From Escherichia coli (GTDB lineage: Bacteria > Pseudomonadota > Gammaproteobacteria > Enterobacterales > Enterobacteriaceae), in NCBI RefSeq assembly GCF_050920415.1, contig NZ_CP169309.1: a DNA stretch of 64,000 bases. The stretch is one strand, 5' to 3'. The position numbers were made by a program. Positions 24,001 through 28,392 of this stretch are shown one piece after another. Every line of letters starts with the position of its first letter. Within the stretch, counting starts at the first letter, position 1.

Positions 24001-27000
24001 ACGCCGTACGATCGGCGCTCATACCAGCTCCGCTAATAACCACTTCTGTCTGCACACGTTTCGAGGCATTGCCTTTGTTATCGTAGGCAACTGCTGAAAT
24101 CGCATAATAATTGTCTTTGCCTGGACGGTAAGCCGGGAGCGTTACTTGCCACTGACTACCCTGACCGGTAATTTTGCCACCTTCAGCCAGTAATGACGGC
24201 GCTTCCCACTGCACATTTTTCAGTCCGTGAGTTGCTTTGCTGACCACAAGCCCCAGGGAAACCGTCTGACCGCCCTTGCCTTCAATACGCTCAGGCAGAG
24301 CAATACGGATCACTTCAGATTTGCGGTACTCAAGAACGATGTTGTTATTACGCTCAACCAGGTCATAGCGGCTGCCTGCCAGCATTCGACGCTCGCGAAT
24401 GCTGTCTGTATCGAGTTGTTTTTGCAGAGGTTCGCCAATTCGGTAGTTAACTTCCAGGCCAAAGCGAGTGTCATTCTCACCACTCTTGCCCTGCTTATGC
24501 CCGGCGCTCAGTGTCAGAAGAGGCACTGGTGTATAGGTTACCTCGGCAGAAATAGCATGCGGGTCTTTCTGGCGTTTATCTTTACCAAACAGCCCGACTT
24601 CATCGCCATAATACTGCTCATACATCAGGCTTGCGCCAAGCTGCGGCCAGGCAGGTAAATAGCCCTCAGCACGAATATCCCAGCCATTCGCCGGGCGTTC
24701 CTGATAATCCTCAACATCCGGCGATTTTTTCCAGCCAGAAGCCCGGATATAACCATTGGCGCTCAGTTTCAAATAATCACGCCAGTATTCCGCACCAACA
24801 CCAATGCGGGTATGACTACGGGATAAATCATGATCGATAAAAGTATTCACCCCCGCCATCCAGTCATTTCCTGAAAAATGACGCCAGCCAAAACCAATAT
24901 TTGACTGAGTACGATCGTCGGTACGATGTATTGCCCCCTGAGTGAACAACATATTTGTCGGCGTGTCATAAATCGGATAAAGCATTTCCAGCGAAGAATC
25001 CTTCAGCGAGAAATCTTTATCGACATTCAGTTTGACGCGCGCTGTACCATATTTCCCGAGCCACTCCTGTATTTCCTGGTTAGCTTTAGCGGTGGCCATT
25101 CCGGTAATAAAGTTACGTGTCGCATCGCTATCTGGCTGACTGCTTAAAAATGTCCCGGCATTTGCGGCAAACGACGCGACATTTTTCTCCACATTATTAT
25201 CAGCAGCTACCGTGGTATTTTCCATGCTCAACCGTGGCTGAACCGCATGCTGCGCGCGTGCTGCCATTACTGGGGTAAAGGTGACAGCGAGTGGGAAAAG
25301 AACCTGAACAGAGATATTTGCCCACGCCACGCAGCGGGCCAGAACTGAATAACGAAATCGTGGTTGTTTATGACCTGTTTTATAACGTGACATTGAGATA
25401 ATTTCCTGATGAACGAATTAACGAACATAGGCAGACACAAATAATGGCGTCTGCTTGTCAGAAAAACCGGGATTTCCCGGTTTCCTTTTCCGCAGAAAAG
25501 GAAATACCTTTATGTAAGAAAGTACACCGCCACCTAATATATCCAGTGCCTGTAGCCACTCATCAGGTGGTTGGGCGCGGGATTATATTTTTATTTATGG
25601 GTGAGAATTTAGCTTTTTGTGCAAACCATTAAATAGATACCTAAGTTATCTTTCTTACTCTGCGGATAGTGAATAATTCATTATTCAGAGTGAATAATAA
25701 TGACCTGCTTTTAATTTACCACGATTGGAAATACGTCGAAGTAGGTATATACGCCAGGATAAACCAATGTATTTTTTATGGATATTCATTTTTCTTCATC
25801 GGACTGTAAATTCCGGGGATATCGAACTTGCACGACTAATCTCAACCCTCAAACAGATTTATGAATTTTGTTCATAACCCCTGACAAATCCTGCCGTCTA
25901 ATCGAGCTTTTCCCTTTACGTTATGCTTCTCATGAACGATAACACAACTTGTTCCTGAATTAACCATTCCGGATAAACTATGGGATCAAATTCAGGCATC
26001 GAAAGGAACTGGCTGGTTTCCGTTAATGGATTAAATATCTATTACTCTCCCGAGAGTAAAACTATCAAACCAATGAGTAACCGATACAGCCTCGCAAATT
26101 CTTTCAGATAATTAACCCGTCACTGCGGCACGTTCTCTCATAAGGCGTGCCTGCTGTGTAATCCAGTATGTATCCGGCATACTTGACGGTTTAATAGAAC
26201 TCAATTCCTTTCCCAGGTTACCAACAACGATATCTTGTATAACATCCCAGGAGATACGACATTATGATGAGATGAGGTATGCTCCTCAGCGCCAATCAAC
26301 GCCAGGGCTGGGCCAGTTTTGAGATCAGACTCATTCCCGGACTGACTTCAGGCGACATATATCAATGACGTTGGGGCAATAAAAGATAGCCGATGTAATA
26401 CATCTATTCAAATTTGTGATACATGTCAAAAAATTGGTTGACCAAACTCGTTATTTATATAAGGGCACTTACGAAGTGCACTCTTTTTTAAAGCGAGGAA
26501 GTACCAATGAAAGAGAATAAAGTACAGCAAATCAGTCATAAACTGATTAATATCGTTGTTTTTGTCGCAATTGTAGAATACGCCTATTTATTTCTCCATT
26601 TCTATTAATAACGGCAATAAACTGTTCACTTCAGTGATATTTAAAATATGCATCCTCTCCCTTTTTTTTAAGTAATTATTATATCCGTGGGAGAGGAATA
26701 CACGCTGTCAGGTAATCAATCAAACTGCGATAAATCATCGGCCAGTAAAGTGGAGATAGCCTCCATTCTCGAAAAATTCATACTCTCAGCGAAACCATCA
26801 TCAATCACTCATCCAGGCGTTTATGGGAGCGTCGCCAATGGCTGCTAACAATGCCAGACTTCCCCGTTGCCGAAATTCCACATACCACAAATGGTCACAG
26901 GGATTGGGTGTTGAAATGATCCGGATGAGCATGTATCTTTACGGTTATGTTATAACATAACAGGTAAAAATGATGAAACCCAATATCCATCCTGAGTATC

Positions 27001-28392
27001 GTACTGTGGTGTTCCATGACACCAGTGTTGATGAGTACTTTAAAATCGGCTCGACTATCAAAACAGACCGTGAGATTGAGCTGGATGGCGTAACGTATCC
27101 GTACGTGACAATTGATGTCTCTTCGAAATCGCACCCGTTCTATACAGGGAAGCTGAGAACAGTGGCATCAGAAGGAAATGTTACACGATTCACCCAACGT
27201 TTTGGTCGTTTTGTTAGCACGAAAAAGGGGGCGTGATGAAAGTCCTTAACTCTCTGCGTACCGCAAAAGAACGCCATCCAGACTGTCAGATTGTGAAGCG
27301 AAAAGGACGGCTGTATGTGATTTGTAAATCTAATCCACGTTTTAAGGCCGTTCAGGGGCGTAAGAAAAAGCGTTGATTCATAATTCGCCGAATTAACGAT
27401 ATTTGTCTGATTAATAATCAGACCGGATTAATGTTGGTGTGTTTATAACACCAACATTAATTTCCTGGGGATATATTCTTCCTGTTCATTTGAGGTCAAC
27501 TGCCTGACGTTTCTCTCCGAATATTCCATTATCTTAATGTTGACTTGTTGACCAACTTCGCCCCTGTATGCTGGTATCAACTCTCTTTTAGACTGAACAA
27601 GCCACTCCGCCCCCTCCCTTTGCGGAGCAGCCTGCATTTACACTCAAACTGTTAAGAAGATAAATGTGGTAAATCTGTTGGTACTAACATAAAAACGTTT
27701 ACGCCACAGGAACAGCCTGATCCACCGGTAACCCCATCGCCGACGTTCGAGTGCCAGTTAGAGTAACGCGCACAGATGACTGCACGCAGTGCCCTGTCAA
27801 AGAGGCCATCGTTCCTGTGACAGCTGGCAGCCTTCGTTTAACTTCACTTAATTTGGCTCTTGGGGGGCTTACCGAACAGATGACGTAGTCACACCTATTC
27901 AATTTATCACCACTTATTGGAGTAAACACCCATAACCATTTTGTGCGGCATGTTAATCCATTAAAACACCTTATTGATTGTCAAATCTTCTTTAATGATG
28001 GCCAATAATAGTTTTATGTTCTATTTATTATCATTAAAAATTGTTTTTTTACTAGTCGAGCACAAAACGCATTAAGACTATTCCTAACACCTCAGGGCAA
28101 AGTTCCTGGCTAATATAAAATGCAAGTAAGAATTGAACGTTATATTGCCAATAACCTTATGAAACTGAATGTCTTTTTCTTCTTATCAAAAAAGCAATAT
28201 TTTCATTTTTAGTAAATATTGACTTAACCATGGAATTCCTTTTCTGTTCACATATTGACACTCATCAGGAAAAAAACATAAATTTAAGCCCAATCGAAAA
28301 TAATTAAAACTTAATCTCGTTTAACCTATATTGATATGTGCTACGTATCTTATTTACTTCCGATTTACTAACAACACTGAATGTACCTGTAA

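Follow-up and report, generated by a model that had tools for sequence, protein, structure and literature searches.

The region between positions 26507 and 27376 of the 64,000-nucleotide stretch of Escherichia coli DNA analyzed here (the window) carries a 33-codon open reading frame, a perfect palindrome and two genes for ribosomal protein paralogs, all of which had been described together in the original prediction. The question it raises is whether these elements are what they appear to be and whether the small ORF belongs with the Zur-controlled genes. We consider it very probable (about 0.96) that the region comprises two known transcription units of the E. coli chromosome, the Zur-repressed ykgM-ykgO operon and a separate ykgR.

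The locus has 100% DNA identity with E. coli NZ_CP169399.1, in which ykgR, ykgM and ykgO are annotated at matching positions, and it was found in 5087 of 5426 complete E. coli genomes. Its K-12 counterparts are b4671 (ykgR), b0296 (ykgM) and b4506 (ykgO). The system is already known, as the ykgM-ykgO/Zur switch and ykgR are all annotated and experimentally characterized, and the reading is in this respect correct but ordinary. The experiments that had been proposed for the locus, on Zur regulation and on translation of the small ORF, have already been published for K-12 sequences that match those found here. In K-12, Zur binding and repression, the presence of both paralogs in the ribosome, and the expression and membrane targeting of YkgR have been demonstrated. 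The features of the locus are as follows.

26465..26489, + strand: hairpin GCACTTACGAAGTGC and then a T-run, located 5 nt before the Shine-Dalgarno sequence of ykgR (terminator-like match)
26495..26499, + strand: ykgR Shine-Dalgarno sequence GAGGA, 7 nt 5' of the ATG (invariant in K-12, E. albertii and L106)
26507..26608, + strand: ykgR, 33-aa small inner-membrane protein MKENKVQQISHKLINIVVFVAIVEYAYLFLHFY (PGAP WP_000662258.1, NF041474, K-12 b4671)
26911..26939, + strand: predicted ykgMO sigma-70 promoter, -35 TTGAAA (26911..26916), 17-nt spacer, -10 TATCTT (26934..26939) (promoter scan)
26944..26961, no strand: Zur operator, 18-bp perfect inverted repeat with half-sites GTTATGTTA and TAACATAAC (motif, conservation, K-12 data)
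26973..27236, + strand: ykgM, type B (zinc-free) ribosomal protein L31, 87 aa (NF002462, PDB 6i7v, no Cys)
27236..27376, + strand: ykgO, type B ribosomal protein L36, 46 aa (NF002021, PDB 6i7v, L36A alignment)
27371..27465, + strand: three stable hairpins past ykgO (MFE -36.7 kcal/mol, z = -6.09, 0 of 200 shuffles as stable)

The Zur operator and control of ykgMO

The perfect 18-bp palindrome, GTTATGTTATAACATAAC, is present as described and is the sole match in the 64 kb even when three mismatches are allowed. It fits exactly the 18-bp Zur motif RxxxYRxxR*YxxYRxxxY derived from crystallography (Gilston et al., 2014, PMC4219657), with agreement at all eight constrained positions (G-TTA-T-G-TT-A on one side of the center and T-AA-C-A-TAA-C on the other). 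The skeletal purine/pyrimidine motif RNNNYRNNRYNNYRNNNY is non-specific when used alone (250 matches in comparison to 280 expected) and was dropped as uninformative by itself; our scan was based on the specific E. coli IUPAC pattern for two dimers, TGWNAYRWTATAWYRTNWCA (Gilston et al., 2014). This pattern matched 19 of 20 positions at 26943..26962, the only site in the 64 kb with one mismatch or fewer. With three mismatches there were six matches versus 2.0 expected by chance, two of them at the ykgM operator and the remainder at 11619, 15135, 18000, and 31000.

We consider it exceedingly improbable that the palindrome is an AT-rich repeat that arose by chance, or that it serves a regulator other than Zur, for example Fur. 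Such an explanation could draw on the non-specificity of the skeletal motif and on the AT-richness of the region, which has been flagged as H-NS bound (PMC3946193), but dinucleotide-preserving shuffles gave the palindrome in 0 of 100 cases, and neither E. albertii nor a divergent Escherichia genome departs from it at any of its 18 positions, although the neighboring segments are only 42–76% identical. It is further opposed by experiments in which Zur was shown directly to bind the same sequence in K-12 and to repress from it (PMC4219657), and by the company that the 18-mer keeps in other bacteria. Among alpha-, beta- and gammaproteobacteria, at least 120 loci contain the 18-mer without any change, and at 89 of 120 such loci it lies beside zinc-uptake or zinc-sparing genes, with at least one zinc-regulon neighbor (COG0523, Zur, ZnuA/C, ZinT, FolE2, TBDR, or L31B). 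The ORFs nearest to it at the 120 loci include COG0523 GTPases (28), Fur-family regulators (14), TonB-dependent receptors (10), ZnuC-like ATPases (10), ZnuA (8), FolE2 (6), L31B (6–7) and ZinT (4).

The L31p operator is the tightest Zur site known, having an apparent Kd of 0.025e-18 M^2 and conferring 560-fold repression in vivo (PMC4219657). Two overlapping Zur dimers are expected on the 18-mer at 26944..26961, which is identical to that of K-12. The distance from the operator to ykgM had been given as 8 nt, which holds for the first in-frame ATG, at 26970. Conservation of this ATG does not extend to E. albertii or to the divergent Escherichia genome, the Pfam and NCBIfam L31 profiles begin at the second Met of YkgM, and both PGAP and the K-12 annotation place the start at 26973, so the distance to the conserved start is 11 nt.

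Our assignment of the ykgMO promoter is a prediction from a consensus scan and from a genomic SELEX study with the RpoD holoenzyme, which lists an identical TTGAAA-17-TATCTT for ykgMO in the ykgM/ykgR spacer (PMC3946193). The Zur box begins 4 bp past the -10 hexamer, overlapping the core promoter and the predicted start site. In the proposed mechanism ykgM and ykgO would be transcribed as a bicistronic unit from this promoter, and the 18-bp repeat would cover the predicted start site and abut the Shine-Dalgarno sequence of ykgM. When zinc is sufficient, zinc-loaded Zur would sit on the repeat as two overlapping dimers, each reading RNNNYxxxRNNNY, and we infer that RNA polymerase would then be excluded; the published Zur footprint is ~30 bp. 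When zinc is scarce, Zur would leave the repeat, YkgM and YkgO would be made, and these would take the places of the zinc-binding L31A and L36A in ribosomes, with YkgM also acting as a repressor of rpmE via the rpmE 5'UTR. Both the paralog switch and the repression of rpmE have been described (PMC9825181; PMC7363858). Since ribosomes switch to bL31B/bL36B in stationary phase even in the presence of zinc (PMC7363858), Zur and zinc may not be the sole input on ykgMO. We found nothing that contradicts the Zur/ykgMO reading, and the original description of a Zur-controlled operon of zinc-independent L31 and L36 paralogs, with the palindrome as its operator, agrees with the published experiments and the comparative evidence.

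YkgM and YkgO as type B ribosomal proteins

YkgM scored 121.9 bits with the NCBIfam type B L31 model NF002462 (cutoff 86) and did not reach the cutoff of either type A model (NF000612, NF001809). The PDB 6i7v chain named "50S ribosomal protein L31 type B" is 100% identical to YkgM residues 1–68. Similarly, YkgO passed the type B L36 model NF002021 (91 bits, cutoff 70) and is 100% identical to a chain of the 6i7v ribosome. For comparison with the zinc-binding forms we used L31A and L36A reference sequences that were verified against PDB. YkgM is free of Cys, and L31A residues C16, C18, C37, and C40 (CxC...CxxC) align with T, V, S, and S, respectively. In YkgO two of the four ligand positions of the L36A zinc ribbon (CxxC...C...H) are changed, C11 to H14 and H33 to F36, with C14 and C27 kept as C17 and C30. 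The claim that both proteins lack zinc-binding Cys motifs is therefore borne out insofar as the full motif is gone from each of them, and strictly Cys-free applies to YkgM only; because YkgO keeps C17 and C30 and has gained H14, its loss of metal binding may be incomplete.

The ATG of ykgO overlaps the TGA of ykgM by one base (TGATG), which suggests that the two genes are translationally coupled. The three hairpins past ykgO, which overlap the 3' end of a frameshifted ykgL on the opposite strand, probably mark the end of the ykgMO transcript.

ykgR and its relationship to the operon

The small ORF had been described as having a proper ATG and stop, and it does (ATG, TAA); it is the already annotated gene ykgR. 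The product matches the NCBIfam equivalog NF041474 over residues 1–33 of 33 with 78.1 bits (cutoff 40), is 100% identical to K-12 b4671 and is a single-pass inner-membrane protein. The protein has been seen on western blots and could be cross-linked with SRP (PMC7549839), and RseP cleaves it in vivo and in vitro (PMC10470546). Its amino acid identity is 88% in E. albertii and 85% in L106, and the C-terminal half is invariant. That the ORF arose by chance and is untranslated is a notion to which we give almost no weight. It is very short and had no match in the copy of Pfam that we searched, but it passes the equivalog model, precomputed PF28062:YkgR matches are recorded for both of the YkgR homologs that were looked up, and its Shine-Dalgarno sequence is strong and conserved. 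Also opposing a chance origin are the identity of the coding segment in E. albertii and L106 (90–92%, versus 42–49% for the spacer), the synonymous nature of five of the six coding differences in a relic copy (below), and the published detection, cross-linking and cleavage of the protein.

The hairpin upstream of ykgR could be either the relic terminator of an upstream pseudogene or an element of the ykgR 5' leader. E. albertii and L106 have altered versions of this hairpin, and its fold is no better than that of shuffles (z -0.29).

The YkgR family was found only in Escherichia-like sequences in an exhaustive search of 1.84 billion representatives, nine of which were returned. One of these, P0009, was considered as a divergent YkgR (66% identity) and rejected, as the E. 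coli-like assembly that contains it is full of indels and has broken copies of ykgM and ykgO too. Several other representatives have tails resembling frameshift or adapter read-through, and P0006 is located at the end of a contig.

Is ykgR under the control of Zur along with ykgM and ykgO? It is improbable that the three genes form one zinc-responsive unit in which ykgR is co-transcribed or co-regulated and aids the response to zinc starvation. The three genes are on the same strand, the ykgR-ykgM spacer is just 364 bp, and no convincing intrinsic terminator was found in it (the fold of 26600..26690 is no better than that of shuffles), such that some read-through from ykgR may occur. The linkage is, moreover, kept in E. 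albertii, in L106 and in the diverged relic copy at 45854..46128. Weighing against a common unit is that ykgMO has a promoter of its own within the spacer and that there is no Zur-like site 5' of ykgR, the only site with one mismatch or fewer in the 64 kb being that at 26943..26962, which lies downstream of ykgR and could not control ykgR itself. The 560-fold repression of ykgM (PMC4219657) implies that there is little read-through from upstream. In addition, ykgMO loci of Moritella, Aliivibrio, Enterovibrio and Acinetobacter have the same box without ykgR, and the search of representatives found YkgR only in Escherichia-like sequences. We conclude that ykgR is probably a transcription unit apart from ykgMO and without a Zur box; the placement of the ORF upstream of the operon is real. 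When 25400..28450 was compared with Rfam at a permissive threshold, the only match was one to GcvB below the gathering score (18.4 bits versus 42, E = 0.49), which we dismissed as chance.

Likewise improbable is a functional tie, as opposed to chance proximity, between ykgR and the ribosomal switch of zinc starvation. The evidence for such a tie is the linkage itself, the ykgR-ykgMO arrangement being retained in every Escherichia locus seen and having once been present in the decayed relic copy as well, where the ykgR part shows purifying selection. The lack of a terminator between ykgR and ykgM would be compatible with it. If there were a tie, YkgR could, for instance, come from read-through or a shared transcript and act at the membrane in zinc limitation.

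The relic copy and comparison with known systems

The 3' part of ykgR had been said to be duplicated at 45863. The duplication is real and is larger than was claimed, spanning 45854..46128 in two directly abutting blocks.

45854..45987, + strand: relic of ykgR codons 12–33 and 65 nt of 3' flank (BLAST 91%; PGAP pseudogene missing its N-terminus)
45989..46128, + strand: relic of the last 27 nt of ykgO and ~113 nt downstream (BLAST 79%; fused directly to the ykgR relic)

These blocks were taken from local BLAST, as global MAFFT misplaced the second of them; they correspond to 26540..26673 (91% identity over 134 bp) and 27350..27489 (79% identity), respectively. The equivalent of the intervening 676 bp (26674..27349) is deleted from the relic, and there is TTTTAAG microhomology at both edges of the deletion. 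The segment is thus a relic ykgR'-'ykgO locus with an internal deletion. The relic ykgR has an in-frame TGA immediately upstream and no start codon; five of its six coding differences are synonymous, and this part of the relic would have evolved under purifying selection. We rejected an origin as an integration-site duplication because the relic holds the last nine codons of ykgO joined to the ykgR 3' flank at the TTTTAAG microhomology. Its pattern fits a duplication or acquisition of the whole ykgR-ykgMO locus that was followed by the 676-bp deletion. A decayed second ykgR-ykgMO locus is present in ~17% of E. coli genomes. Comparison of the hypothetical protein downstream of the relic with YkgL revealed no homology.

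The K-12 ykgM-ykgO operon (b0296-b4506; PMC4219657; Rasmussen et al., 2022, PMC9825181) is the same locus as that described here. The 18-bp palindrome, the promoter hexamers, YkgO and YkgR (100% each) are identical in K-12, and YkgM is 98.9% identical, owing to one amino acid difference; a few bases near the box also differ (C/T at 26942; AAA/AAG at codon 3). In this strain fdeC/eaeH is intact and ykgL is frameshifted, whereas in K-12 eaeH is disrupted by IS3 and ykgL is intact. The relic copy is missing from K-12 since the CP4-6 prophage occupies that position. For YkgR (b4671; NF041474/PF28062), the 33 residues are identical to those of the protein for which SRP-dependent post-translational insertion and RseP cleavage are known, and we found no difference.

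The ykgM-rpmJ2 operon of Yersinia pestis is an orthologous, Zur-repressed type B L31/L36 operon for which there is evidence from EMSA, footprinting, primer extension and lacZ fusions (Li et al., 2009, PMC2706843). Its Zur box is within ~35 nt of the ykgM start codon and overlaps the -10 element (PMC2706843). Unlike the perfect, even-length 18-mer of E. coli, the Y. pestis box has a 9-1-9 form, GATGTTACATTATAACATA, and reporter repression was only ~4.7-fold (PMC2706843). As cited in the same paper, ytiA of Bacillus subtilis resembles ykgM in encoding a Zur-repressed zinc-free L31 paralog that displaces zinc-bound RpmE in zinc limitation (PMC2706843). It differs from ykgM in having a Gram-positive Zur box and another operon structure.

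The value of the locus is mainly as a positive control, the operator, the operon and the 33-codon gene all having been recognized from raw sequence. Biosensors for calprotectin/zinc have been described in the literature, and one abstract states that a Zur-controlled promoter was used. The ykgMO/Zur switch serves as a model for metal-sparing remodeling of the ribosome; its rediscovery here brings no new biology. As a pan-proteobacterial Zur box, the exact 18-mer of E. coli is a very clean marker of zinc regulons.

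Genomic context of the ykgR-ykgM-ykgO locus

The window comes from the Escherichia coli chromosome. Its segment 26300..27500 is 100% identical to strain MFDS1022581, and 5087 of the 5426 complete E. coli genomes carry it at an identity of at least 95%. Feature coordinates were mapped to the window from the NCBI annotation of the identical record, which places fdeC/eaeH upstream and ecpR downstream of the three genes. The same genes are b4671, b0296, and b4506 in K-12 MG1655. The original prediction for this locus holds with minor corrections and its interpretation is supported; all of its elements are already known and annotated.

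Features of the ykgR-ykgM-ykgO locus (NCBI annotation)
26507..26608, ykgR, "small membrane protein YkgR"
26973..27236, ykgM, type B L31
27236..27376, ykgO, type B L36
27411..27637, (-), opposite strand, ykgL, frameshifted

Two of the surrounding genes differ from K-12: ykgL is intact there but frameshifted here, whereas fdeC/eaeH (21140..25393, -), an IS3-disrupted pseudogene in K-12, is intact in the window (1417 aa). Further from the locus are a GyrI-like/HTH regulator gene split by a frameshifted IS2 transposase (~19178..20405) and a P4-like prophage remnant with integrase, primase, and capsid genes, adjoining rclBC (~6300..16256).

The Zur operator and the type B ribosomal proteins

The predicted perfect 18-bp palindrome, GTTATGTTATAACATAAC, is present at 26944..26961 and is the sole match in the window, even with three mismatches allowed; none of the shuffled windows reproduced it. 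It agrees with every constrained position of the motif of Gilston et al. (PMC4219657). The bare purine/pyrimidine skeleton of the Zur motif is non-specific; their more specific IUPAC pattern agrees with the ykgM operator at 19 of 20 positions, and no other site in the 64 kb comes within one mismatch of it. In that study the L31p (ykgM) operator ranked first both as a palindrome and in Zur affinity, and gave 560-fold repression in vivo. The reading of the palindrome as a Zur operator is therefore upheld by published data on the identical K-12 sequence, together with comparative evidence.

A promoter scan found a sigma-70-like promoter, TTGAAA-17-TATCTT, at 26911..26939, and genomic SELEX of the RpoD holoenzyme gave the same hexamers for ykgMO, in the ykgM/ykgR spacer (PMC3946193). 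The box thus begins 4 bp past the -10 element and covers the expected start site. At the orthologous Y. pestis ykgM-rpmJ2 promoter, the Zur site lies over the -10, as determined by footprinting and primer extension (PMC2706843). The original prediction placed the palindrome 8 nt before ykgM, a distance that reaches only the first in-frame ATG (26970). This codon is absent from E. albertii and a divergent Escherichia genome, but the second ATG (26973) is conserved in both and the Pfam and NCBIfam profiles begin at the second Met of YkgM, so the true gap is 11 nt. The ykgO start is ATG 27236, which shares one base with the ykgM stop codon (TGATG); GTG 27233 was rejected.

YkgM and YkgO score above the cutoffs of the curated type B models: 121.9 bits for YkgM with NF002462 (cutoff 86) and 91 bits for YkgO with NF002021 (cutoff 70). 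In PDB 6i7v, the chain called L31 type B is 100% identical to YkgM over residues 1-68, and the chain called L36 2 is 100% identical to YkgO. Both had been expected to lack zinc-binding Cys motifs; the full motif is absent from both, but only YkgM is free of cysteine. In alignments with zinc-binding L31A and L36A sequences that exactly match PDB ribosome chains, the L31A ligands C16, C18, C37, and C40 are replaced by T, V, S, and S in YkgM, which has no cysteine, while YkgO retains C17 and C30, aligned with L36A C14 and C27, and has H14 and F36 in place of C11 and H33. Zur represses ykgMO, and zinc depletion leads to production of L31p and L36p; rpmE is also repressed by L31p, via the rpmE 5'UTR (PMC9825181). 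The paralogs are also the predominant forms in ribosomes of stationary-phase cells in the presence of zinc (PMC7363858). Three very stable hairpins 3' of ykgO (27371..27465, z = -6.1) probably end the ykgMO transcript; they overlap the 3' end of the oppositely oriented ykgL.

YkgR and a relic second copy

The predicted 33-codon ORF was found as described and is ykgR, preceded at 7 nt by a GAGGA Shine-Dalgarno sequence. Its product matches NCBIfam equivalog NF041474 (78.1 bits vs. 40) and is identical to K-12 b4671. YkgR has been seen by western blot, with post-translational cross-linking to SRP (PMC7549839), and the intramembrane protease RseP cleaves it as a class I substrate (PMC10470546). 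The family is narrow, since HMMER, run exhaustively against 1.84 billion representatives, returned just nine sequences and ykgR is missing from the ykgMO loci with this box in Moritella, Aliivibrio, Enterovibrio, and Acinetobacter. Essentially all nine are Escherichia-derived variants or assembly artefacts: P0002, P0007, and P0009 are artefacts, some representatives have tails resembling adapter or frameshift read-through, and one derives from GCA_900603405.1, an E. coli-like assembly that is riddled with indels and has broken copies of ykgM and ykgO as well.

Because an IUPAC pattern scan of the 64 kb found no Zur-like site upstream of ykgR, and ykgMO has its own promoter, we would read ykgR as a separate unit. 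Some read-through from ykgR into ykgM may nevertheless occur, as terminator and fold scans of the spacer revealed no convincing terminator between the genes. The spacer (26674..26910), marked as H-NS bound (PMC3946193), is ~100 bp shorter in E. coli than in E. albertii (L009) and the divergent Escherichia genome (L106). A 6-bp GC-containing hairpin and the T-run after it (26465..26489) lie 5 nt before the ykgR Shine-Dalgarno and are kept, with changes, in E. albertii; they could be either a ykgR 5'-leader element or what is left of a terminator belonging to the ykgP pseudogene.

A partial duplication of ykgR had been noted at 45863. The copy is real, but that description is incomplete, as a second homologous block adjoins it: 26540..26673 (ykgR codons 12-33 plus 65 nt) corresponds to 45854..45987 (91%), and 27350..27489 (the last 27 nt of ykgO and downstream sequence) to the immediately adjacent 45989..46128 (79%). 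The intervening 676 bp (spacer, promoter, Zur box, ykgM, and most of ykgO) have no counterpart, and a TTTTAAG microhomology occurs at both edges of this deletion. The ykgR relic has an in-frame TGA just ahead of it, and in each strain inspected PGAP annotates it as a pseudogene that lacks its N-terminus. Of the six differences in its coding part, five are synonymous (P ~0.002; 22% synonymous expected at random), so through most of its divergence the copy evolved as a functional gene. The stretch 45854..46128 is what remains of a second ykgR-ykgMO locus, duplicated or acquired, and not a repeat with a present function. This copy, found in 921 of 5426 genomes, lies ~19 kb downstream in direct orientation, beyond the ecp and pao operons.

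Conservation and spread of the operator

When the window, K-12, E. albertii, and the divergent Escherichia genome are aligned, the 18-mer is identical at 18/18 positions, and identity is 68-76% for the promoter segment, 63-72% for the start-codon segment, and 42-49% for the spacer. Scanning one genome per bacterial species (298 Gb), we found the exact 18-mer in at least 120 loci of alpha-, beta-, and gammaproteobacteria; by rough estimate, chance would account for only a few sites, up to a few tens. Hosts (L003-L122) include Pelagibacter, Bradyrhizobium, Acinetobacter, Thauera, and Vibrio. Neighbor families were defined as clusters of ORFs starting within 200 nt of the 18-mer, and at least one of the following is present at 89 of the 120 loci listed.

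Neighbor families of the exact 18-mer (counts among the loci listed)
COG0523 CobW-like GTPases, 28
Fur-family regulators, 14 (median distance 2 nt)
TonB-dependent receptors, 10
ZnuC-like ABC ATPases, 10
ZnuA, 8
Periplasmic binding protein family, 7
FolE2, 6
L31 type B, 6-7
ZinT, 4
M15 peptidases, 3

Directly beside the 18-mer at four loci of marine alpha- and gammaproteobacteria (L005, L023, L059, and L119) is a family of ~380-445 aa proteins with no Pfam match. The L005 example starts 35 nt past the box and has a signal-peptide-like N-terminus and a C-terminal Phe; this family may represent an outer-membrane component of zinc regulons that lacks annotation.

The neighbor set is the canonical zinc-starvation regulon, and the 18-mer is a Zur box well outside E. 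coli too. The 14 Fur-family genes are presumably zur under autoregulation, and their starts, at a median of 2 nt past the box, suggest that such autoregulation is widespread.
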